64,000 nucleotides of DNA from an uncultured Gammaproteobacteria bacterium (lineage in GTDB: Bacteria > Patescibacteriota > Patescibacteriia > SG8-24 > DYFX01): contig CAYNUS010000004.1 of NCBI GenBank assembly GCA_964400625.1, forward strand, positions 26,164-90,163, in the 5' to 3' direction. The position numbers and the translations under genes were made by a program. This document shows positions 3,328 through 15,799 of the stretch, piece after piece (positions within the stretch are counted from its first letter, which is position 1; every line of letters starts with the position of its first letter). Under the pieces are notes generated by a model. It saw only the letters and a list, made by a program, of their open reading frames with translations. It had not been told where the DNA came from and did not search any database.

Positions 3328-4230
3328 TTATGCGTTGGCGAGCGCGGCGCGCCCGGCGGAGATTTCCGCGATCTCTTGAGTGATGCCGGCCTGGCGTGCC
3401 TGGTTGAAGGTGAGGCGGAGGTCGTCGATCATGTCGGCGGCGGCGTCCGTGGCGTTCTTCATCGCCAGCATGCGCGCCGAGTGCTCCGAGGCGAGCGATT
3501 CGAGGACGGCCTGGTAGAGCTGGGCCTCGGCCACGCGCGGCAGGAGCTGGTCGAGGACGGTGCGCGCGTCGGGTTCGAAGACGTATTCCTCGGCGGCCTT
3601 GGCGTTCGCGTGGACCTCCTCGTGTCCGCGGACCTCGCCGAGCTCGCTGTCGCGCGTGAGCGGGAGCAGCGTCTTGGCGCGGGGCTTCTGGAGGATCGAG
3701 GAGACGAAGTCCGTGTAGATGACGGCGACCTCGCCGTACTCCCCCGCCGTGAAGCCGTTCCTGGCGAGGCGCGCCAGCGGGCGGACCTTCGTGACCGGAG
3801 GGGCGCCGCCGGCGAGCACGTCGCCGAACGAGGCCTTGAGGGGGAGCTTCCGGCGCCGCGCCCACGCCTCGCCGCGGCGGCCGATGGCGATGACGTCGAC
3901 GGAGCCTTCCGGCCGCGAGCGGATGAACTCGTTCGCGACGCGGATCACCTGGGCGTTGAAGCCTCCGCAGAGGCCGCGGTCCGAGGTGACGAGGATCGCC
4001 AGCGCGCGCCCGGACTCCGGCTTCTTGAGGAGCGGATGCGCCTCCTCGCCCCTCTGCTCCAGCCGTGCGACCAGGCTCCACGCCATCTGCGCGTAGGGAC
4101 GCGAAGACAGCACGGCCGAGACGGCCTTGCGCATCTTCGAGGCAGCGACCAGTTCCATCGCCTTCGTGATCTTCTTCGTGTTCACGACGGACTTGATGCG
4201 GCGGTTGATGGCTTTCGTGTTGACTCCCAT
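3328..4230 (-). CDS. atpG: F0F1 ATP synthase subunit gamma
   Basis: 300 aa starting MGVNTKAINRRIKSVVNTKKITKAMELVAASKMRKA, the classic gamma N-terminus. Confidence 0.95.
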   Translation of the reverse strand: MGVNTKAINRRIKSVVNTKKITKAMELVAASKMRKAVSAVLSSRPYAQMAWSLVARLEQRGEEAHPLLKKPESGRALAILVTSDRGLCGGFNAQVIRVANEFIRSRPEGSVDVIAIGRRGEAWARRRKLPLKASFGDVLAGGAPPVTKVRPLARLARNGFTAGEYGEVAVIYTDFVSSILQKPRAKTLLPLTRDSELGEVRGHEEVHANAKAAEEYVFEPDARTVLDQLLPRVAEAQLYQAVLESLASEHSARMLAMKNATDAAADMIDDLRLTFNQARQAGITQEIAEISAGRAALANA

Positions 4231-4250
4231 GGCGCGCGTTCGGTCGGGAC

Positions 4251-5765
4251 TTAGACGGTCTTCTTGTATTCGGCGATGGCTTCCTTCAGCTCGGCTTCGA
4301 TGTCCGGCTCGAGCGCCTTCTTCTCCTTCAGCTTCTTCATGAGCTCGGCGCGGGAGGCTTTGAGATACCGGTGGAAGCCGTCCTCCCAGTCGCGGACCTT
4401 GTCGATGGCGACGTCGTCGATGAGGCCGTTGGTCACCGCGTAGATGACGGCGGCCTGGTGCTCGAACGGCATCGGCTGGTACTGCGGCTGCTTCAGGATC
4501 TCGACCGTGCGGCGGCCGCGCTCGATCTGCGAGCGCGTCGTCTCGTCGAGATCGGAGGCGAACTGGGCGAAGGCTTCGAGCTCGCGGAACTGCGCGAGGT
4601 CGAGGCGCAGGCGTCCGGCGACCTTCTTCATGACCTTCGTCTGGGCGGCGCCGCCGACGCGCGAGACCGAGAGGCCGACGTTCACGGCCGGGCGGATGCC
4701 GCGGTAGAACAGGTCGCCTTCGAGGTAGATCTGGCCGTCGGTGATGGAAATGACGTTCGTCGGGATGTAGGCGGAGACGTCGCCGGCCTGCGTCTCGATG
4801 ATCGGGAGCGCGGTGAGCGATCCGCCGCCGTGCTCCTTGTTGCGGCAGGCGGCGCGCTCGAGGAGGCGCGAGTGCAGGTAGAAGACGTCGCCCGGATAGG
4901 CTTCGCGGCCCGGCGGGCGCTTCAGGATGAGCGAGATCTGGCGGTAGGCCCAGGCGTGCTTGGAGAGGTCGTCATACACGACGAGCGCGTCCTGGCCCTT
5001 GTCCATGAAGTATTCGCCGATGGCGGCGCCGGCGTACGGCGCGAGGTACGACATCGAGGCGGGGTCGGAGGCGCCGGCCACGACGATGACGGTGTAGTCC
5101 ATCGCGCCCGCTTCCTCGAGCTTCGCCATGATGCGCGCGATCTTCGATTCCTTCTGGCCGATGGCGACGTAGATGCACGTCACGCCCGCGCCCTTCTGGT
5201 TGATGATGGTGTCGACCGCGATGGCGGTCTTGCCGGTCTGGCGGTCGCCGATGATGAGCTCGCGCTGGCCGCGGCCGATCGGGACCATCGCGTCGATGGC
5301 CTTCACGCCGGTCTGGAGCGGGACGCCGACGGGCTCGCGGGTGACGACGCCGGGGGCGACCTTCTCGATCGGATAAGACTTGCCGCCCTTGATCGGGCCC
5401 TTGCCGTCGAGCGGACGGCCGAGCGGATCGACGACGCGGCCGATGAAGGCGTCGGAGACGTCGATCGAGAGGATCTTGCCCGTCGAGCGGACGGTGTCCC
5501 CTTCCTTCAGGTGCTTGGACTCGCCGAGCACGATGGCGCCGACGGTCTCCTCTTCCAGGTTGAGCGCCAGGCCGTAGGTCGGCTCCTTGCCGTCCGGTCC
5601 CGGGAACTCGAGCATCTCCGAAGACATGGCCTCGGTGAGGCCGGTCATGCGGACGACGCCGTCGCCGGATTCGACGATCGTGCCGACCTTCTCGGCCTTG
5701 GCGTCGACCGAGGCCTCGGAGATCTGCTTCTTCAGCGCTTCGATGATGAATTCTTTGGTGGCCAT
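4251..5765 (-). CDS. atpA: F0F1 ATP synthase subunit alpha
   Basis: 504 aa with GDRQTGKT P-loop. Confidence 0.97.
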
Positions 5766-6164: not shown

Positions 6165-6731
6165 TCAGGAATCGATGCGCTTCGCGGCCGCGTCGAGCAG
6201 GCCCTTCTTCTGCGCGTCGGTGAGCTTCTCGCCGAGCGCCTTGCCGGCGATCATGACCGCGAGCTCGGCGATCTCGGAGCCCGCCTCGCGGACCATCTTC
6301 TCCTTCTCGGCGGCGAGCGTGTCCTTGCCCTGCTGGACGAGGGCGGCGAGTTCCGCCTGCGTCTTGGCCTTGAGTTCGGCGCGCTGGGCTTCGGCGGCCT
6401 TCTGCGCCTCCTCGATGAGGCGCTGGGCTTCCTTGCGGGCGGCCAGGATGGCTTCCTCCGACGCCTGTTCCGCGCCGGACTTGGCGGCCGCGGCGGCTTC
6501 GGCGTCCTTGAGGCCCTTGTCGATCTTGGCGGTGCGGCTGTCGATGATCTTGAGGAGCGGCGTGTAGACCCACTTCCACATGACGAAGAGCACCACGCTG
6601 AAGTTGAGCAGCTGGGCGATGAAGAGCTTCCAGTTCACGCCGAGCGCGCCAAGGACGGATTCCTCGGCATGGACGGTCGCGGCCGCTTCGGCGGCGGCGT
6701 GGACGATTTCGGGTGCGAAGGGGTTGAACAT
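6165..6731 (-). CDS. atpF: F0F1 ATP synthase subunit B
   Basis: 188 aa with an N-terminal TM helix and an Ala/Glu/Lys-rich coiled-coil stalk. Confidence 0.85.
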   Translation of the reverse strand: MFNPFAPEIVHAAAEAAATVHAEESVLGALGVNWKLFIAQLLNFSVVLFVMWKWVYTPLLKIIDSRTAKIDKGLKDAEAAAAAKSGAEQASEEAILAARKEAQRLIEEAQKAAEAQRAELKAKTQAELAALVQQGKDTLAAEKEKMVREAGSEIAELAVMIAGKALGEKLTDAQKKGLLDAAAKRIDS

Positions 6732-6790: not shown

Positions 6791-7012
6791 TTACAGGGTG
6801 AAGACGACGACCAGGGAGTAAATGGCGATGGCTTCCGCGAAGGCGGCGCCGAGGAGCATCGGGACGAAGAGCTTGCCGGCGGATTCCGGGTTGCGGCCGA
6901 TGGCTTCCATGGCCTTGCCGACCAGGTTGCCGATGGCGAGGGCCGGAGCGATGCCGCCGATGGCCATCGTGGCGCCTTTGATGAGGACGGACATGGATTC
7001 TGCGTCGAGCAT
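6791..7012 (-). CDS. atpE: F0F1 ATP synthase subunit C
   Basis: 73-aa proteolipid hairpin with conserved carboxylate (…FAEAIAIYSLVVVF…). Confidence 0.9.
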   Translation of the reverse strand: MLDAESMSVLIKGATMAIGGIAPALAIGNLVGKAMEAIGRNPESAGKLFVPMLLGAAFAEAIAIYSLVVVFTL

Positions 7013-7126: not shown

Positions 7127-7990
7127 TTAGGAAGCGCGCGCGCCGTGCGGTTCGAGGCCGTGCGCCTCGCCCAGCTCGTCCTCGTGATGCTCCTCGTGGT
7201 CGCCGTGCGGCTTCGACGAGAGGATCGTGAGGTAGACCAGGGCGAGCATCGCGAAGACGGTCGCCTGGACCATGCCCACGATGAGCTCCAGGAAGGTGAA
7301 CGGCAGCGGGACGACGTACGCCACGAGCGAATACATCACGGTGATGAGCACCTCGCCGGCGAAGATGTTGCCGAAGAGGCGCAGCGACAGCGAGACGACC
7401 TTGGCGATCTCGGCGAAGAACTCGATGACGCCGACCAAGAGCTCGACGGCGGCGACCACGATATCCATCGGCTTCTTGCGGAAGGACTTGAAGAACGTCC
7501 CGAGCGCGATGAACTTGTTCCAGTGCGCGAAGAAGCCGATCGTGACGATGCCCACGAGGTGCGAGGCGATGACGGTCAGCGCGGCCATCGCCAGCGTCAT
7601 GTTGAGGTCGGCGTTGGCGGGGCGGAAGATCGGCGCGTTCTCGACGTGTCCGTGGAGCTCGATGGTGCGCCAGAGCGAACCGACGCCCGGCAGGATGCCC
7701 ATCCAGTTGCAGACCAGGATGAAGAGGAAAAGCGTGCCCACGAGCGGCAGGAACTTCTTGGATTTGGCGCGGTCCTGCGTGACCTGGTCGACATAGCCCA
7801 GCATGAACTCGACCAAGCCTTCGACCGCCGACTGGAAGCGGCCCGGGACGTCCGACGTGAGCGCGCGCTTCACGAGGAACGCGACCGCGACGAAGACCGC
7901 GACCGCGAGCCAGGCGTTGATGAGCGAGTTCGTGATCGGGAAGCTCCCGACGTGGAAGATGGGTTCAGCGGCGATCGGCGGGATGGTCAT
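7127..7990 (-). CDS. atpB: F0F1 ATP synthase subunit A
   Basis: 287-aa polytopic membrane protein with the conserved Arg region (LSLRLFGNIFAGE). The start may be downstream alternative codon because it overlaps the upstream gene by 26 nt. Confidence 0.88.
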   Translation of the reverse strand: MTIPPIAAEPIFHVGSFPITNSLINAWLAVAVFVAVAFLVKRALTSDVPGRFQSAVEGLVEFMLGYVDQVTQDRAKSKKFLPLVGTLFLFILVCNWMGILPGVGSLWRTIELHGHVENAPIFRPANADLNMTLAMAALTVIASHLVGIVTIGFFAHWNKFIALGTFFKSFRKKPMDIVVAAVELLVGVIEFFAEIAKVVSLSLRLFGNIFAGEVLITVMYSLVAYVVPLPFTFLELIVGMVQATVFAMLALVYLTILSSKPHGDHEEHHEDELGEAHGLEPHGARAS

Positions 7991-8240: not shown

Positions 8241-8304
8241 AGATAAGACGACGCCAGTCTATTGGAAGACCGGCGCGACGTCAACGGTGGGTAACTTTAT
8301 TGCG

Positions 8305-9174
8305 CTAACCTTGGCCCATTCTCCGGAACAACCGGCGCGCGTTGGCCGTCGTGGCGGCGGCGACCTCATCGAAGGCGATGCCCTTGAGCGCGGCGACCTT
8401 CTCGGCCACGAGTTTCACGTTGGCGGGCGTGTTGCGTTCGCCGCGGCGCGGGACGGGCGTGAGGTACGGCGAATCGGTCTCGACGACGATGCGGTCGAGC
8501 GGCGCCCACGCGACGACGTCGGTCAGGAGTTCCTTGCCTTCCTTCACGTCCGACTTGCGCGGCGGATACGTGATGGAGCCTCCGAACGCGAGCATGAAGC
8601 CCAGCGCGAGATAGCGTTCGGCGTCGTGCTTGGTGCCCGTGAAGCAATGGATGACGCCGCGGATCGGATCGCCTTCCCGATACGCCCCCCAGATCTTCCC
8701 GATGAGCGCGATCTGGTCATCGTGCGCGTCGCGGCAATGGATGACGACAGGCAGGTCGCTCGCGATGGCGAGCCGCGCGCCCGCTTCGAAGGCGGCGGAT
8801 TCGCGCTCCTTCATCTCCTCCAGGGAGACGTTCTCGTATTCGTAATGATAGTCGAGCCCCATCTCCCCCACCGCCACGACCTTCGGATGCTTCAAAAGTT
8901 CCCCGTAGTAGGCGGGATCGAACGATTCGTTCCGCGACTTGAACTGCACCTCGCCCTCGTCGTGGTAGCCGGCGAAGATGTGCGAAGGATGCAATCCGAC
9001 GGTCGCCCAGACGCCGTCGTATCTTTCCGCGAGCCTGATGCCGTTCGCGCTCGTGTCCTTCTGCGTGCCGATCGTCACCATCTGGACGCCTTGGGAAAGG
9101 CAAGAACGGACGACATCGTCCATGTCGTCCTTGTAGGCGTTGAAGTGCACGTGGCAGTGGGTGTCGATCAGCAT
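8305..9174 (-). CDS. tatD: TatD family metal-dependent hydrolase (DNase)
   Basis: 289 aa starting MLIDTHCHVHF, with conserved His/Asp/Glu pattern. Confidence 0.9.
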   Translation of the reverse strand: MLIDTHCHVHFNAYKDDMDDVVRSCLSQGVQMVTIGTQKDTSANGIRLAERYDGVWATVGLHPSHIFAGYHDEGEVQFKSRNESFDPAYYGELLKHPKVVAVGEMGLDYHYEYENVSLEEMKERESAAFEAGARLAIASDLPVVIHCRDAHDDQIALIGKIWGAYREGDPIRGVIHCFTGTKHDAERYLALGFMLAFGGSITYPPRKSDVKEGKELLTDVVAWAPLDRIVVETDSPYLTPVPRRGERNTPANVKLVAEKVAALKGIAFDEVAAATTANARRLFRRMGQG

Positions 9175-9178
9175 GGGT

Positions 9179-9661
9179 TCAGCCGCCGTCCTTGGGGTTT
9201 TCGCGTTCGCGCTTGCGGCGTTCGGCGGGCGTCAGGTCCTTCTCGGCGGCGATCTTCGCGACGGGCGCGACGTGCTCGACCATCTTGGCGATCGGGGCGA
9301 CAGGGATGACGTGGTCGATGACGGCGGTCGTGACGACTTCCTCGGCGATGTCGTCCAGGATGCCGCCTTCCGAGGCCTTCTTCCGGAGCGTTTCGTAGCG
9401 CCCTTGGATCGCGTCCGCCGCGTCCTCGATGGCCTCGAGTTCCTCCTGCTCCTCGCGGGTGAGATGGCCTTCCTGGCGTCCGGCCTGCAGGCGCGCCTCA
9501 TGGACGGCCTTGAGTGCCTCCTCGGATTCGGTCTTCGCGAGCGCGAGTTCGGCCTTGAAGGCGCGGCTCCGTTCGCCGAAAAGGTCGACGCCCGCTTCCT
9601 GTTCGGGCGAGCGCTTCTTCTCCCGTTCCGCGGAGGGCTTCGGGCGTTCGAAAATCCCCAT
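9179..9661 (-). CDS. hypothetical coiled-coil protein
   Basis: 160 aa, Glu/Ala/Lys rich. Tightly packed between tatD and the next gene. Confidence 0.45.
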   Translation of the reverse strand: MGIFERPKPSAEREKKRSPEQEAGVDLFGERSRAFKAELALAKTESEEALKAVHEARLQAGRQEGHLTREEQEELEAIEDAADAIQGRYETLRKKASEGGILDDIAEEVVTTAVIDHVIPVAPIAKMVEHVAPVAKIAAEKDLTPAERRKRERENPKDGG

Positions 9662-9665
9662 AGCT

Positions 9666-9851
9666 TCAGCCGAGCCCGAGCTGGCGGCGCAGCTTGGCGA
9701 TCAATCCTTGGTCGCGGCGTTTCCCGACGGAGGCCGTGAAGGCGCGGCTCCGGCTCATGAGCGCGCGCATGTCGGCGCGGAGGCTGCGGAGTTCGGCCTG
9801 CATGCCCATGAGCTGCGCTTCGGAGAGCGGCAAGGCGGCGGCGATGCTCAT
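9666..9851 (-). CDS. hypothetical small protein (61 aa)
   Basis: ORF overlaps cvpA by 4 nt. Only the operon context supports it. Confidence 0.3.
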   Translation of the reverse strand: MSIAAALPLSEAQLMGMQAELRSLRADMRALMSRSRAFTASVGKRRDQGLIAKLRRQLGLG

Positions 9852-10360
9852 ATCACGGACTGGATCTGGCGCACCGCCTGCGGAAGGAGCGGCGCGAAGA
9901 GGCCGAAGGCGTGCAGGAGCCAGATGCCGACATGCGAGGCGGCCAGCACGGAGCCGAAGCTCGCGCTGATCGGATAGCGCGCGGCGATGTAGAGCGCGCC
10001 GCCGACCACGACGATGCCTTCCAGGAAGCCGAGCAGGCCGCCCAAGAGCGCATTGAACGTCTTCAGGAACGGGATGACGGCGACGATCTTGAAGACCTTC
10101 TCGATGATCCAGAAGACGAGGCCGATCAGGCGGTTCACGAGGATCATGAGCACGAGGAACATCACGACGCGCGCAAGGTTCTCGTTGCCGAAGAAGACGC
10201 CGGCGACCGCCTGGCCCCAGCTGTCGTAATAGCGGCCGGCCACGAGCACCGAGAGCACCATGCCGACGAGGCCGCCGAGCGCATGGATCAAGCCGAACCA
10301 GAGCCCCGCCAGGACGAAGGCGAAGACCGAGAGGACGAGGATGAGGTCGAAGAAGGTCAT
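9848..10360 (-). CDS. cvpA: CvpA family membrane protein
   Basis: 170 aa with 4 TM helices and the colicin V production protein family pattern. Confidence 0.7.
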   Translation of the reverse strand: MTFFDLILVLSVFAFVLAGLWFGLIHALGGLVGMVLSVLVAGRYYDSWGQAVAGVFFGNENLARVVMFLVLMILVNRLIGLVFWIIEKVFKIVAVIPFLKTFNALLGGLLGFLEGIVVVGGALYIAARYPISASFGSVLAASHVGIWLLHAFGLFAPLLPQAVRQIQSVI

Positions 10361-12183
10361 TTCTTGGCTTTCAAGGCTTTCTTGTAGGCCTCATGCAGTT
10401 TCTTGGGATCGTCCGCTTCCATGTCGCTGGGCATCTCGAACCCGGCGGTCTCGAGCGCCTGGAGGAACGAGGCGGGCGTGGCGAACTTCCCGTCGCCGGC
10501 CTTGCCCTTGGTGCGGAGCGTCTCGACGATGGCGGGCAGGGATGCCGGCGCGAGCGGTTCCTTCTTGGCTTTCGCGATCTTCTCCGGCGTGAGCTCTTCG
10601 GCCGGCGCGGCTTCCGGCTTCGCGGCGGGCGTCATGCGGAGGTCGTCGCCCGGTTCGACGGAAATCGCTTCGGGCGCGGGAGGCGCCGCCTCGACGGCCG
10701 GCGCTTCGGAGATGATCTGCGCGTCCTCGACCTCGATCTCGCCGGCGGCGGTCGGGGCGTCTTCGGAGGTCTTCGTCTTCTGGAGGACGGTCTCGTTCTC
10801 GATCTCTCCGGAGGCGACGGGCGTCTCGGAGGAGCGGACGATCTTCATCGGCTGGACCTCTGGCGCGAGCACGACGCTCGGTTCCGCTTCGGCCGCGGGG
10901 GCCGACGCTTCCTTCGCCTCGATCTCGCCGCTCGCCGGGAGCTGTCCGCGGAGCGCCTCCTGGGCGTCCTTGGCGAGTTCAGCCTTCTCGGCATCGGTGA
11001 AGACCGTTTCTTCCGCTGGCGCGGTTCGCATCTCGGGCGTGAGCTGGATCGGGTTCTCTTCGCCGCCCTCCTCCTTCGCGGCCGCGTCTTCGGCCGCCAT
11101 GGCCGCATCGACGCGCGCGCCCATCTCGGCGATGCGTTCCTTGCGCGCGTTGATTTCCTCGACCTTGCCGCCCGGATGCACGCGGAGCTTCATGCCGGAA
11201 GCGTACGAGCGGAGCTGTCCGCCGTCCTCGTACGTGAGGCGGATCTCCCCCTTCACGGGATCGAAGGATTTCCCGACGATTTCGCCGTAGCTGTCGGCGT
11301 CCAGGTCGCGCACCTTGAGGTAGTCATCGATCATGCGCTCGCCGGGGAGGCCCTCGGCGCCCTTCACGACGGTGCCGTCCTTGAGCTTGCCGCCCTTGAG
11401 GAGGAACTCGCGATCGGCGGCCAGACGTGCTTCCGGCGACGGCTTCGCTTCGGGCGCTTCCGCTTTCGGGGCGGGCGCCTCCTGCGGAGCCTCGGCCGTC
11501 GGGGCGGGCGCCTCGGCCGCGGCCTGTTCCTGGGCCGCCGCGTTCGCGGCCGCGAGCGCTTCCGTCGAACCGAACTTCCCGCCCGCGAGCTTCTCGCGGA
11601 CGTCGGCCAAGCGCTTGTTGATGTAGTTGAGCTTGGCGCCGGTCTCGGTGACCTGCGGCATTTCCCCCGTCTTGAGAGCCTTCTTCATCGCAGCGGATTC
11701 TTCGGCGCCTTCCGCGGCGACCTTGGGGGCCAGCTGGTCGTAGGCGGCCGAGAGGCTTCCTTCCAGGGCGCGGAGCTCCGCTTCGCCGCCGTGCGCCATG
11801 ATGCGCGCCATCTCTTTCCTGAAATTCGCGAAGACCGCGTCGGCCTTCTCGATCTCCGCCAGGATTTCGGCCTCGCCTTTGACGGGGCCGCCGTCCTTCT
11901 TCTTGAACAGCCGCTCCTTCATGCGGCTCCAGACGGATTTCGTCTCTTCCTTGAATTCCTTGGCGCCTGCTTCGGCCTGCAGGTCCAGGTTCTTGCCGAG
12001 CTCGTTCACGCGGGCCATGCCCTCCTCCGCCAGACGCTCCTCCTTCTCGCCGATGGATTCCTGTTTGCGGCTCTCGGCATCCATCTTCTCGCCCTCCTTC
12101 AAGAATGCCTCTTCGTGAGGGGCGATCGTTTCGGCCTGCTTGCGGGCTTCGGGGGTCGCGGGCTGGAGCGCGGGATCCGCCAT
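10357..12183 (-). CDS. large hypothetical protein (608 aa): coiled-coil N-terminus, central globular region, acidic Ala/Pro/Glu-rich tail
   Basis: Long ORF with 4-nt overlaps to both neighbours. The GC-rich antisense ORF on the plus strand was rejected. Low-complexity PEAK/AEAP repeats are present. C-terminus ends ...KKLHEAYKKALKAKK. Confidence 0.6.
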   Translation of the reverse strand: MADPALQPATPEARKQAETIAPHEEAFLKEGEKMDAESRKQESIGEKEERLAEEGMARVNELGKNLDLQAEAGAKEFKEETKSVWSRMKERLFKKKDGGPVKGEAEILAEIEKADAVFANFRKEMARIMAHGGEAELRALEGSLSAAYDQLAPKVAAEGAEESAAMKKALKTGEMPQVTETGAKLNYINKRLADVREKLAGGKFGSTEALAAANAAAQEQAAAEAPAPTAEAPQEAPAPKAEAPEAKPSPEARLAADREFLLKGGKLKDGTVVKGAEGLPGERMIDDYLKVRDLDADSYGEIVGKSFDPVKGEIRLTYEDGGQLRSYASGMKLRVHPGGKVEEINARKERIAEMGARVDAAMAAEDAAAKEEGGEENPIQLTPEMRTAPAEETVFTDAEKAELAKDAQEALRGQLPASGEIEAKEASAPAAEAEPSVVLAPEVQPMKIVRSSETPVASGEIENETVLQKTKTSEDAPTAAGEIEVEDAQIISEAPAVEAAPPAPEAISVEPGDDLRMTPAAKPEAAPAEELTPEKIAKAKKEPLAPASLPAIVETLRTKGKAGDGKFATPASFLQALETAGFEMPSDMEADDPKKLHEAYKKALKAKK

Positions 12184-12187
12184 ACGT

Positions 12188-12355
12188 TTACGAGTTCTTG
12201 AGTTCGTTCAGGATCTTCTCGATCTCCTCGCGTTCGAGGTCGCCGAGCACTTTCTTCATCACGTCGAGGCGCTCGTGTTCCAGCCCCTTGATCTGCTCCA
12301 TGAACTGGTCGTAGGCGGCCTGGAGTTTCTTGGCCTTTTCTTCGGTGGTTTCCAT
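12188..12355 (-). CDS. hypothetical small coiled-coil protein (55 aa)
   Basis: In-frame ATG at 12353-12355 within the out-of-frame ORF 12188..13456 (METTEEKAKKLQAAYDQFMEQIKGLEHERLDVMKK...). Sits between metG and the 608-aa gene. Confidence 0.35.
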   Translation of the reverse strand: METTEEKAKKLQAAYDQFMEQIKGLEHERLDVMKKVLGDLEREEIEKILNELKNS

Positions 12356-12381
12356 ATAGGTGGAGTATACCAAAAGACGGC

Positions 12382-13884
12382 TTACGCCGTCTTTCGTTCG
12401 AGCCGCGGGAAGAGGATATCGCCTTTCTTGACCGGAAGGCCCGGTTCGAGGCCGCCCCAAGCCTGGGCTTCGGGGAGCTTGGCCGCGGCGGGGTCGACGC
12501 CGATCTGGGCGAGGACCTTGGCGGCGGCCGACGGGATGACGGGCAGGAGCGCGAGCCCGATCTGCCGCTGGGCTTCGGCGAGCTGATACATGAAAGGAGA
12601 GACGTCCACGCCTTCCTTGGCCTTCTTGAATGGCGCCTCGACGTCGATGGCCTGGTTCACGGTCGTGACGTAGTGCTCGAGCGCGCGGATGGCCTCGTCG
12701 AAGTGGAAGGCGTCGAGCGCCTTCTCGTACTTCTCCCAGAAGGCGGCGGTCTCGAAGCGGTCGTCGGCCTTCGTCGGCACCTTCGCTTCGCAATACTTCT
12801 CGACCATCGTGGCGGTGCGCGCCGCGAGGTTGCCGATGCCGTTCACGAGCTTCGAGGTGTAGATGTCCTCGAACTGCTTGGCGGTGTAGTCGCCGTCCTC
12901 GTAGGCCGGAAGGCTGGCGAGGTAGTAGCGGACGGTGTCGGTGCCGTACTGCGCGACGAGGTCCATCGGGTTCACGACGTTGCCGAGCGACTTTGACATC
13001 TTCTGGCCGTCGGCGGTGATGAAACCGTGGATGAAGATGCGCTCCGAGAGCGGGACGCCGGCGGAGAGGAGCATCCCCTGCCACATCGCGGACTGCTGGC
13101 GCAGGTTGTCCTTGCCGGCGACCTGCGTGCCGGGCCAGAACTTGGCGTAGGCCTCGTCCGGCCAGCCGATCGTGGAGATATAGTTCACGAGCGCGTCGAA
13201 CCAGACGTACATCACGTGCGCCTCGTCGCCCGGGACAGGCACGCCCCACGACATCTTTTCCTTGAGGCGCGAGATGCTGAAGTCCTGGAGTCCGCCCGCC
13301 ACGAAGCTGCGGATCTCGTTCAGGCGGTGTTCGGGGACGACAAAGCCGGGATTGGCTTCGTAGTGCTTGAGGAGCGCGTCCTGGTACTTCGACCAGCGGA
13401 AGAAGTAGTTCTCCTCGTCGCGGTTCTCGATCTCGAGCTTCGGGTGGATGGGGCATCTGCCGTCGACCAGTTCCGAATCGGTCTTCTCGAGCTCGCAGCC
13501 GACGCAGTACTTCACCTGGTACTGCTTCTTGTAAATGTCGCCGACGGCGTCGCAGCGCTTCCAGAATTCCTGCGCGGCGGCCACGTGGTGCGCGTCGGTC
13601 GTGCGGATGAAGTGGGTGTAGGTGAGGTCGAGCGTGTCCTTGAGCGCGTGGAACTTGGCGGCGTATTGGTCGCAGTACGCCTGCGGGTCGAGGCCGGCCT
13701 TCGCGGCGGCGTCCTGGATCTTCTGCCCGTGCTCGTCGGTGCCGGTGTTGAAGACGACCTCCTCCCCCTTCAAACGATGCCAGCGCGCGACGATGTCGGC
13801 CTGGACGATCTCCAAGGCGAAGCCGATATGCGGATCGGCGTTCACGTACGGGAGCGTGGTGGTGATGTAGAAGTTTTTTTGCAT
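12382..13884 (-). CDS. metG: methionine--tRNA ligase
   Basis: 500 aa with class I aaRS motifs (HIGH-like PHIGFA, KMSKS) and a Zn knuckle. Confidence 0.95.
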   Translation of the reverse strand: MQKNFYITTTLPYVNADPHIGFALEIVQADIVARWHRLKGEEVVFNTGTDEHGQKIQDAAAKAGLDPQAYCDQYAAKFHALKDTLDLTYTHFIRTTDAHHVAAAQEFWKRCDAVGDIYKKQYQVKYCVGCELEKTDSELVDGRCPIHPKLEIENRDEENYFFRWSKYQDALLKHYEANPGFVVPEHRLNEIRSFVAGGLQDFSISRLKEKMSWGVPVPGDEAHVMYVWFDALVNYISTIGWPDEAYAKFWPGTQVAGKDNLRQQSAMWQGMLLSAGVPLSERIFIHGFITADGQKMSKSLGNVVNPMDLVAQYGTDTVRYYLASLPAYEDGDYTAKQFEDIYTSKLVNGIGNLAARTATMVEKYCEAKVPTKADDRFETAAFWEKYEKALDAFHFDEAIRALEHYVTTVNQAIDVEAPFKKAKEGVDVSPFMYQLAEAQRQIGLALLPVIPSAAAKVLAQIGVDPAAAKLPEAQAWGGLEPGLPVKKGDILFPRLERKTA

Positions 13885-13996: not shown

Positions 13997-14674
13997 TCAT
14001 TTCCCTTCGACGGCGATGACGTATTCGCCTTTGATGGGTTCGGATCGGAGGAGTTCGGAAGCGTCCTTCATCTCGCCGTAGCGGACGGATTCGAACATCT
14101 TGGTGAGTTCGCGGCCGATGACGATCTTGCGGTGCGGGTCGCAGAGCGCGGAGAGTTCCGCCATCGCCTTCTCGACGCGATGCGGGCTCTCGAAGAAGAC
14201 GCTCGTGCGCTTCTCGTCGGCGATGATCTTCCAGTAGGTGTTCCTCCCCTTCTTGTGCGGCGGGAAGCCGTGGAAGACGTAGGCGTCGGCCGGGAAGCCG
14301 GAGACGGAAAGGAGCGTCGTGACGGCGGAGGGCCCGGGAATCGGCACGACCTTCACCTGGCCCTGCGAGACGCGCACGAGCTCGGCGACGAAGCGCGCGC
14401 CCGGGTCCGAGACGCCCGGCGTGCCGGCGTCGGAGATGAGCGCCATCGTCTCGCCTTGGTCGATGCGCTTCACGAGCGCCTGCAGCTTCCCCATCGAGGT
14501 GTGCTCGTGATAGCTCGTCGTCGCGGCGGGAACCTCGAAGTGGTTCAGGAGCTTCCGCGAGACGCGCGTGTCTTCGCATAGCACCAAGGATGACTCCATC
14601 AGCGCGGCGACGGCGCGGGGGGAGAAATCGTCGAGATTGCCGATGGGCGTGGCGATGACATACAGACGACTCAT
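13997..14674 (-). CDS. rsmI: 16S rRNA (cytidine1402-2'-O)-methyltransferase
   Basis: Starts LYVIATPIGNLDD and has the tetrapyrrole-methylase fold signature. Start chosen at MSRLYV. Confidence 0.85.
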   Translation of the reverse strand: MSRLYVIATPIGNLDDFSPRAVAALMESSLVLCEDTRVSRKLLNHFEVPAATTSYHEHTSMGKLQALVKRIDQGETMALISDAGTPGVSDPGARFVAELVRVSQGQVKVVPIPGPSAVTTLLSVSGFPADAYVFHGFPPHKKGRNTYWKIIADEKRTSVFFESPHRVEKAMAELSALCDPHRKIVIGRELTKMFESVRYGEMKDASELLRSEPIKGEYVIAVEGK

Positions 14675-14806
14675 ACCTTTTGCTGATCGCGCGAGCATGA
14701 TGAATGATGGCGTCCTTTCTCGTGCGGTCACCCCGGAATCGCGCAGCGATGTCCGGGGTGCTCATACGCGTCCAGCCTATAGAAAAACCCCCGAACCGTC
14801 GAGGGT

Positions 14807-15799
14807 TCAGGGGTAGACCGGGCGGAGCGCGGCGTGGAGCGCGAGTTTCGCGGCGTCCGGGGCGAAGGACATGTCGATGGAAGCGGCGACGAGCTTCACG
14901 AGGTCGCCTTCCTCCAGCTTCCAGGCTTCCTGGGCGAGGCCGAGCTCGCGGGCCATCGTGGTGTCCGCCAGCGTGCGGTTGTCGGTGTTGAGCCCGACCC
15001 GCAGGCCTTCCTTCAGATAGACCCAGGCCGGGTGCAGGTCGATCAGGCTGACGGTGCGCGTCTGCAGGTTGGAGGTGAGGCACGCTTCGATGCCGACGCC
15101 GCGCTTCGCCAGGAGCTCCAGCATGCGCGGGTCGCGGATGGCGTTCACGGCGTGGCCGACGCGTTCGGCGCCGAAGAGCTCGACGGCCTCGCGGATGCGC
15201 TCCGGCGGCCCGCTTTCGGCGGCGTGGATCGTGACATGGAGCCCGGCCTCGGCGGCGCGGCGGAAGTGCGGCGCGTGGTCGAGCGAGGGCAGCATGTCGT
15301 TCCCGGCCAGGTCGACCGCCACGACGCCGTTGCGGCGGTAGCGGATGGCGACGTCGATCATGCGTCCGGTGACGCTCGGGTCGACGTGGCGGAGGCTGCA
15401 GACGATGAAGCCCCAGCCGACGCCGTGCCGCATGCCGCCGATCGTCATCCCCTCCAGGATCGCCTCGACGACCTCCTCGTCGGAGAGCCCGCCGAGCGTG
15501 CTGAGCCGCGGCATGTAGCGCGCCTCGACGTACTTCAGGCCGTCGGCGGCGCAGTCTTCGATCAGCTCGATGGCGACGCGCGTGAGCGCGGAGCGGGACT
15601 GCAGGACGGCCGTGGTGTGGTCGAAGTGTTCCAGATACTGCGGCAGGCTCGCGCGGACCTCGCCGCAGGCGAGCGCCTTGCGGAGGCCGGATTCGGTCCT
15701 GGCGGGCAGGACGGTGTTCTCGGCCTCGGCGATCTCGAGCATGGTCGCGATCCGCAGCGAGCCGTCCAGATGGAGATGGAGTTCGACGAGCGGTTCCAA
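14807..15799 (-). CDS. add: adenosine deaminase
   Basis: 330 aa with the LHLHLDGSL metal-binding motif and C-terminal SNLQTRTV region. Confidence 0.85.
   Translation of the reverse strand: MEPLVELHLHLDGSLRIATMLEIAEAENTVLPARTESGLRKALACGEVRASLPQYLEHFDHTTAVLQSRSALTRVAIELIEDCAADGLKYVEARYMPRLSTLGGLSDEEVVEAILEGMTIGGMRHGVGWGFIVCSLRHVDPSVTGRMIDVAIRYRRNGVVAVDLAGNDMLPSLDHAPHFRRAAEAGLHVTIHAAESGPPERIREAVELFGAERVGHAVNAIRDPRMLELLAKRGVGIEACLTSNLQTRTVSLIDLHPAWVYLKEGLRVGLNTDNRTLADTTMARELGLAQEAWKLEEGDLVKLVAASIDMSFAPDAAKLALHAALRPVYP

Follow-up and report, generated by a model that had tools for sequence, protein, structure and literature searches.

We analysed a window of 64,000 nucleotides (contig CAYNUS010000004.1, positions 26,164 to 90,163, from a bacterium placed among the Patescibacteriota in GTDB), in which five genes, here called g1, g2, cvpA, g4 and g5, lie between metG and tatD. 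A preliminary description, made from the letters alone, had regarded them as a single inserted block. Comparison with related loci leads to a different picture. Within this part of the phylum, cvpA was the original gene of the metG-tatD interval, because distant Patescibacteria hold it directly between metG and tatD. The genes g1 and g2 are a later single addition between metG and cvpA, and g4 and g5 are a second, more facultative addition. The locus is a previously uncharacterised variant of a CvpA-containing operon, and literature searches revealed no description of the cluster.

Layered composition of the metG-tatD interval

The ancestral arrangement was detected in a metagenome scan with the CvpA profile. 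In the distant Patescibacteria loci L024/25, L027/28 and L032 the gene order is rsmI-metG-cvpA-tatD, and 10-75 nt separate the end of metG from the start of cvpA. Compared to the window, their CvpA proteins are 37-51% and their metG products 42-61% identical.

Among closer relatives, ten contexts were compared (L001/2, L003/4, L005, L006, L009, L010, L011, L012, L013 and L014). All ten show the order metG-g1-g2-cvpA-[variable slot]-tatD-atp operon, with a gap of 1-6 nt between g1 and g2 and an overlap or a gap of at most 4 nt between g2 and cvpA. The order g1-g2-cvpA reaches relatives with 77% metG identity, or 69% if locus L022 is counted. Scattered homologs and a disrupted g2 frame had been named in the preliminary description as findings that would speak against a linked module; the linkage is kept in all ten contexts, and the 608-aa frame is intact in every relative.

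In L022, where metG is 69% identical, the region 3381-4999 encodes a 54-aa g1-like protein (hhalign E 4e-5), followed by a gene for an acidic, Pro/Ala-rich protein of 483 aa that overlaps the start of cvpA. A profile-sequence comparison of this 483-aa protein with the g2 family revealed no detectable similarity. The position and character of the g1/g2 pair outlast its sequence similarity, as L022 illustrates.

The slot between cvpA and tatD is an insertion hotspot that holds zero, one, two or four genes. It is empty in L003, L005, L006 and L013, contains g4 and g5 in the window, L001, L010, L015 and L017, and contains g4 and g5 plus two more genes, coding for proteins of 59 and 425 aa, in L011 (L011:8577-9990). 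In L012 and L014 it is occupied by a single unrelated gene for a protein of 138 or 173 aa (L012:8628-9044, L014:8315-8836), a family with the shared motif YVRATVAYF...DYRADYR.

The g1, g2, g4 and g5 families are restricted to a narrow Paceibacter-like clade and carry no annotation. An exhaustive hidden Markov model search of 1.84 billion representatives with the N-terminal domain of g2 retrieved no more than 36 proteins at E ≤ 0.001, and a word-based search with g2 gave 16 matches. The source name attached to the g2 homologs is 'Patescibacteria group bacterium', and only two GTDB species representatives encode g2, a Candidatus Paceibacter sp. metagenome-assembled genome (MAG) and a Patescibacteria MAG from Hainich groundwater.

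Gene content also varies elsewhere around the locus. A Peptidase_M15_4 gene for a protein of 177-181 aa, absent from the window, lies between rsmI and metG and overlaps the end of rsmI in L005 (5766-6299), L006 (428-961), L009 (3772-4305) and L014 (3927-4472). The interval between tatD and the atp operon holds an ornithine carbamoyltransferase gene on the opposite strand in L010 (10473-11387) and a terpene-synthase-like gene in L012 (9975-11129). L001/L002 carry a gene for a 151-aa protein without Pfam match between thiI and an adenosine deaminase gene (L001:4071-4526), which has no counterpart in the window and at which the blastn alignment breaks. Across this part of the phylum it is CvpA, not tatD, that is the conserved neighbour of metG.

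Reality of the genes and family assignment

The gene set was read from the list of all open reading frames (ORFs), and families were assigned by a Pfam scan. The list confirms the five genes that had been described between metG and tatD, all on the minus strand: g1 (12188-12355; 55 aa, acidic), g2 (10357-12183; 608 aa), cvpA (9848-10360; 170 aa), g4 (9666-9851; 61 aa) and g5 (9179-9661; 160 aa, acidic). With a GC content of about 65%, the window abounds in long spurious ORFs on both strands. One of them, a 602-aa ORF antisense to nearly all of g2 (10393-12201, plus strand), is a typical mirror ORF of high-GC DNA and a GC artefact, with both homology and the ratio of non-synonymous to synonymous substitution rates (dN/dS) favouring the minus-strand frame. 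Compared to their orthologs, dN/dS was 0.15-0.18 for g1, 0.40-0.51 for g2, 0.19 for g4 and 0.14 for g5, next to 0.08-0.12 for metG and 0.17-0.21 for cvpA. g1, g2, g4 and g5 are real genes under purifying selection, because these ratios are low, homologs occur in several lineages and a g2 domain is predicted to fold with a predicted local distance difference test score (pLDDT) of 94.

The preliminary description had recognised a family only for CvpA, and this was borne out. The cvpA product belongs to PF02674 (Colicin_V; E 5e-14, 52.9 bits at a cut-off of 29.3, profile positions 1-132 of 144) and is 74-96% identical within the clade. Its grand average of hydropathy is 1.41, with hydrophobic 19-aa windows at aa 1-43, 55-127 and 138-156, as in a small polytopic membrane protein. 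The other four products showed nothing above threshold in Pfam, NCBIfam, PADLOC or PHROGs. When 40 members of the g1 family and 16 of the g2 family were scanned one by one against Pfam, only sub-threshold matches appeared; those to Cdc37_C, Ribosomal_L17 and Tcp10_C were judged to be compositional. Searches of PDB sequence profiles with the N-terminal domain of g2 and with the g1 family gave no match, and Foldseek against BFVD gave nothing usable. In PADLOC, g5 had two marginal matches (E 0.018 and 0.031) and the other proteins none, so that no defence system was assigned. No segment of transmembrane grade was found in g1, g2, g4 or g5 based on Kyte-Doolittle hydropathy.

Organisation of the transcription unit

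The genes rsmI-metG-g1-g2-cvpA-g4-g5-tatD form one apparent transcription unit. The five genes are assigned to it because hairpins bound it on either side and a terminator-hairpin scan of the coding strand found no convincing terminator between them, in agreement with the co-transcription suggested earlier. Inside the block, gaps of 4 nt separate g1 from g2, g4 from g5 and g5 from tatD, and ATGA overlaps join g2 to cvpA and cvpA to g4. The tight packing described before holds for these junctions; the 26 nt between metG and g1 are slightly more than had been implied.

The first gene of the apparent operon is an rsmI-like methyltransferase gene (13997..14731, minus strand; PF00590, E 8e-28; 98% aa identity to L001). 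Its ORF comprises 244 aa from a GTG, and the nucleotide similarity to L001 starts at about position 14676. As all homologs have 225 aa, the true start is probably near 14674, about 19 codons downstream of this GTG. Upstream of rsmI, a terminator-like hairpin (14787..14814, minus strand) with an 11-bp stem, seven GC pairs and a following T run marks the end of the preceding unit. The adjacent metG (12382-13884, minus strand; 500 aa; PF09334, tRNA-synt_1g, E 9.5e-93) lacks the C-terminal appended domain and is 89-95% identical in close relatives. The last gene of the unit codes for a TatD-family hydrolase (8305-9174, minus strand; 289 aa; PF01026, TatD_DNase, E 1e-67). It is followed by a second terminator-like hairpin (8276-8251, within 8251..8284, minus strand), which overlaps a sigma70-like promoter site (TTGACG, 17 nt spacer, TAGACT) from which atpB (7127-7990), atpE (6791-7012) and atpF (6165-6731) of the atp operon would be transcribed. 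An Rfam scan of the whole window gave no match.

Fast and mosaic evolution of g2

The hypervariable gene of the locus is g2. Between the window and L001, amino acid identity is 98% for rsmI, 95% for metG, 92% for cvpA, 92% for tatD, 87% for g1, 87% for g4 and 88% for g5, and only 55% for g2; in six close relatives g2 is 43-55% identical compared to 89-95% for metG. At the nucleotide level the flanks are 83-93% identical to L001, and the last ~800 nt of g2 (10363-11156) cannot be aligned. In the two reliably aligned g2 domains, synonymous divergence (dS) ranged from 0.74 to 1.6, mostly 0.75-1.0, compared to 0.28-0.52 in metG and cvpA. The corresponding dN/dS values were mostly 0.23-0.57, with a single comparison of the L003 central domain at 0.94. 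g2 is constrained yet fast-diverging, and the flanking sequences may be younger than its alleles.

Furthermore, g2 is a mosaic protein, because its C-terminal types swap, its central domain duplicates and its motif counts vary. The C-terminal ~80 residues occur in two unrelated types, type 2 replacing type 1 in many close relatives. The type 1 C-terminus of the window is 57-61% identical to those of L011 and L014, though metG of L014 is only 81% identical, and it is 35% identical to that of L001, though metG of L001 is 95% identical. The C-terminal modules do not follow the species tree. One g2 homolog carries a doubled central domain. The motif SGEIE occurs in zero to three copies among the homologs, and NPIxLTPEM once in the window and three times in L014.

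A tblastn search of the whole window revealed no second copy of g2. A repeat search of positions 9100-12450 found no long repeat pairs and no signature of a diversity-generating retroelement or mobile element, but only the SGEIE-coding triplet and an RSRAF motif shared by g4 and g5. We rejected g2 as the target of a diversity-generating retroelement, as there is no template/variable repeat pair and no reverse transcriptase lies directly beside those related loci that were annotated, the reverse transcriptase itself not having been searched for.

Predicted architecture of g2

The g2 protein is acidic (isoelectric point (pI) 4.8), soluble and largely disordered. Its structure was taken from an AlphaFold2 model, in which long stretches are helical, and membrane-binding helices were sought with a simple hydrophobic-moment calculation in 18-residue windows. 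The maximum hydropathy over 19 aa is 0.59, below the transmembrane threshold, and by inspection the polar N-terminus MADPALQPATPEARKQAE shows no signal peptide or double-glycine leader and the protein no sortase or other anchor motif. g2 is most likely cytoplasmic, because there is neither a segment of transmembrane grade nor, by inspection, a signal peptide.

An N-terminal helical domain (aa 44-200; 11584..12054, minus strand), with helices modelled at pLDDT 70-86, is conserved in the clade (alignments A1 and A2). It includes a cationic amphipathic helix (aa 75-96; 11896..11961, minus strand), a candidate membrane-binding segment with the motif [ST][WF][WF]x[RK]xKxxF at aa 83-96. T81, S83, W85, R87, K89 and K95 are invariant, and the motif persists in the distant homologs L012-L014. 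In eight of ten homologs this helix ranks first to third by hydrophobic moment (muH 0.47-0.58) and has a net charge of +2 to +5, which makes membrane binding plausible. There follows an Ala/Pro-rich linker (aa 201-250; 11434..11583, minus strand) with 38% Ala and 16% Pro, the AEAP/PEAK-type low-complexity region noted in the preliminary description; its length varies among homologs, and pLDDT falls below 50 at aa 223-242.

Conservation within g2 reaches deepest in the central alpha/beta domain (aa 276-346; 11146..11358, minus strand), which is confidently modelled as one helix and a five-strand beta-meander and is still 28-38% identical in L013 and L014. The model of a 128-residue g2 segment has a mean pLDDT of 94. 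At aa 347-372 the model predicts a helix with the recurring motif RIAEMGxRVDAAMxAED. The subsequent acidic region (aa 373-529; 10597..11067, minus strand) has a net charge of -23 and is predicted to be mostly disordered, with pLDDT below 50 at aa 376-393, 413-428 and 430-529 and one modelled helix at aa 397-412. It contains NPIxLTPEM once and SGEIE three times; at the DNA level, GEIE is encoded by the three copies (10720-10744, 10786-10810 and 10906-10930, minus strand) of direct-repeat family D4. The protein closes with the type 1 C-terminal helical domain (aa 530-608; 10360..10596, minus strand; columns 1075-1187 of alignment A1). An amphipathic C-terminal tail had been described earlier, and the last 18 aa are indeed basic and moderately amphipathic (muH 0.43).

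The small proteins g1, g4 and g5

The g1 family comprises 62 homolog clusters, all of 51-64 aa except for one 89-aa protein, and g1 is always located after metG and just before g2. The conserved core reads AYDxFMxQxxGLEHERLEVMKKVIG. In the window, the start of g1 is an ATG that lies inside a longer, spurious ORF, and many homologs are annotated with 61 aa from an upstream start. Judged from its sequence, g1 is probably helical, and g4 and g5 read likewise. A comparison with ZapA (PF05164) gave no match at E ≤ 0.1 for g1, nor at E ≤ 0.05 for 40 family members. We also considered g1 as a split-off C-terminal domain of methionyl-tRNA synthetase and dismissed this, as g1 reads as a short helical protein without a Pfam tRNA-binding match and the end of metG is unchanged in relatives without g1.

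The g4 protein is very basic (pI 11.9) and has the conserved C-terminus RRDEGLIAKLRRQLGLG; in g5 the segment EEVVTxAV...P..AK is conserved, and the tail is basic. Homologs of g4 occur in L001, L010, L011, L015 and L017, and g4 is present wherever g5 occurs. The 14 homologs of g5 all belong to the same clade, are always paired with g4 and are absent from L003, L005, L006 and L013. Identities of g4 and g5 are 40% and 33% to L010 and 61% and 59% to L011, so these two proteins also diverge fast between some close relatives. They share a near-identical stretch of 21 nt (95%) coding for RSRAF[KT]A (9551-9571 and 9732-9752), which may be a trace of partial duplication or a shared motif.

Interpretation and alternatives

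In the Paceibacter-like clade, an ancestral housekeeping operon, rsmI-metG-cvpA-tatD, acquired lineage-specific genes. We propose a model in which g1, g2 and CvpA act jointly at the cytoplasmic face of the membrane, with CvpA as the integral component. The soluble, acidic g2 would dock via the cationic amphipathic helix at aa 75-96 and act as a peripheral-membrane hub, while its folded modules and the SGEIE (three copies) and NPIxLTPEM motifs could recruit or cross-link partners, or bind g2 itself. g1 may serve as a small helical adaptor or regulator produced in step with g2, and the basic g4 and the acidic g5, both soluble and encoded downstream of cvpA in some lineages, would form a facultative pair of their own. 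That g2 is a peripheral-membrane scaffold or hub working with CvpA is the reading that we favour, though only tentatively; we infer its association with CvpA or the membrane, its hub role and any link to envelope or division.

In favour of this model, the order g1-g2-cvpA is found in the ten contexts and L022, with junctions of at most 6 nt or ATGA overlaps. Purifying selection on all the genes, the persistence of the cationic helix motif in even the most distant g2 homologs, the probable cytoplasmic location of g2, the zapA-yshB precedent and the genetic link of CvpA to envelope stress also speak for it. Folded modules joined by long disordered linkers with repeated short motifs are typical of hub and scaffold proteins such as PopZ and the C-terminal half of RNase E. 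The modelled architecture of g2, in which modules alternate with acidic or Pro/Ala-rich linkers of low pLDDT that carry repeated motifs, would be typical in this sense and counts for the hub reading.

Several observations weigh against it. g1 shows no similarity to ZapA or any family, and the g2 domains have no assignable relatives. The segment at aa 75-96 is not highly ranked in L010 and L014, and its prediction is a simple hydrophobic-moment calculation. Distant relatives hold cvpA without g1 or g2; therefore, CvpA does not need them. Sharing an operon with rsmI, metG and tatD might just as well point to a function in translation or related to RNA, and tight packing, the norm in small genomes of this kind, is weak evidence of a functional link.

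Some of these points lead to a different explanation, in which a strongly expressed housekeeping operon would carry the four genes without family as lineage-specific passengers that form no functional module with CvpA and either have a translation- or RNA-related role or are dispensable. The rest of the operon serves rRNA methylation, tRNA charging and, with TatD, a nuclease function, and cvpA without g1 or g2 in the distant relatives would fit as well. Around the insertion hotspot, genes for an M15 peptidase, an ornithine carbamoyltransferase, a terpene synthase and the unrelated 138/173-aa proteins are present in some relatives and missing from others, and genomes of the candidate phyla radiation pack unrelated genes tightly. 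However, in all ten contexts g1 and g2 occur together and abut cvpA, never tatD or rsmI, and the g2 stop and the cvpA start overlap or lie at most 4 nt apart; a positional analog of the pair even persists in L022, where the similarity to g2 is lost. We regard passengers as somewhat unlikely. For g4 and g5 it may be speculated that the two genes are a small mobile cassette which landed in the hotspot between cvpA and tatD, for example a toxin-antitoxin-like, selfish or defence pair. Their presence varies among very close relatives, the same slot takes unrelated genes, and a basic 61-aa protein (pI 11.9) is combined with an acidic 160-aa protein. Neither partner, however, matches a Pfam, NCBIfam, PADLOC or PHROGs family, including those of type II toxin-antitoxin systems, the pair turned up solely at this locus and in a single clade, without a copy in a different genomic setting, neither repeats nor an integrase were observed on its flanks, and both genes are co-oriented inside the operon. 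A mobile pair is very unlikely on this evidence.

The hypervariability of g2 could also point outwards. g2 might be exported or surface-exposed, as an adhesin, a factor for interaction with a host or partner, or a phage-exposed antigen, with a CvpA-dependent release that echoes the colicin V link; diversifying or balancing selection, together with the exchange of alleles, would then account for its variation. This would fit an identity of 43-55% compared to 89-98% for the neighbours, a synonymous divergence of 0.75-1.0 in the well-aligned domains compared to 0.3-0.5 in metG and cvpA, and a C-terminal type that is incongruent with the flanks (57% identity to L014 at 81% for metG, 35% to L001 at 95%). 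Modules are duplicated or swapped, and the 3' ~800 nt are unalignable. Secretion of ColV in E. coli requires CvpA (bioRxiv 10.1101/2020.09.25.314492). On the other side, g2 lacks, by inspection, a signal peptide, a double-glycine leader and any sortase or other anchor motif, hydropathy revealed no transmembrane segment, and dN/dS was below 1 wherever measured. Disordered proteins evolve fast without external selection, and the highly charged acidic composition of g2 is typical of cytoplasmic disordered regions. Export is improbable on balance. In a bolder version, to which we give little credence, g2 would be a trans-specifically polymorphic, recombining 'cassette' protein. Its two C-terminal types, duplicable central domain and variable motif numbers would be shuffled between Paceibacter lineages because the protein is a target of conflict with phages or with the cells that carry the ultra-small bacteria, and CvpA would aid its display or release. 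If true, this would be a hypervariable interaction locus inside a housekeeping operon.

Returning to the proposed g2-CvpA scaffold, CvpA is conserved across bacterial phyla, and g2, translationally coupled to it in a fixed operon position, is a natural partner to test when asking what proteins of this family bind. The locus illustrates cleanly how an ancestral housekeeping operon of Patescibacteria received ORFan genes in layers, and it shows a disordered protein diverging to ~50% identity while its neighbours stay at ~95%. The immediate impact is limited, as the clade is narrow and uncultivated.

Comparison with known systems

The arrangement had initially been considered compatible with an envelope or cell-division scaffold module. 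A role in division or envelope is suggested by analogy only, based on the membrane nature of CvpA, the candidate helix of g2 and the Firmicutes zapA-cvpA(yshB) operon. It stays an analogy because g1 is not ZapA by sequence. In Bacillus subtilis, the gene for the small helical cytoplasmic protein ZapA is co-transcribed with the CvpA-family gene yshB (PMC4406074), and in Streptococcus pneumoniae a colicin V family gene lies directly downstream of zapA (PMC8687745). The likeness to our locus is a gene for a small helical protein upstream of a CvpA/colicin V family gene. The two differ in that g1 has no similarity to ZapA, a gene for a 608-aa disordered protein is interposed here, and the operon context is rsmI-metG-tatD compared to polX-mutS2 in the Firmicutes.

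Like E. coli CvpA, the 170-aa protein of the window matches PF02674 and is a small polytopic membrane protein. The host here, however, is a patescibacterium, taken as monoderm, and neither a sigmaE pathway nor exposure to bile is implied. The neighbour of cvpA in E. coli is purF, unlike here. Genetic evidence links CvpA to envelope stress (bioRxiv 10.1101/2020.09.25.314492).

For g2, the TCP10/G-box (CPAP/SAS-4) and polo-box beta-meander domains may be named beside its central domain, the match to Tcp10_C being sub-threshold. There is no sequence or fold relationship between g2 and PopZ or the C-terminal half of RNase E. The likeness lies in the general build, namely acidic, Pro/Ala/Glu-rich disorder with short linear motifs and small helical end domains, and the amphipathic membrane-binding helix known from RNase E, FtsA and MinD would have its counterpart in the predicted segment of g2.

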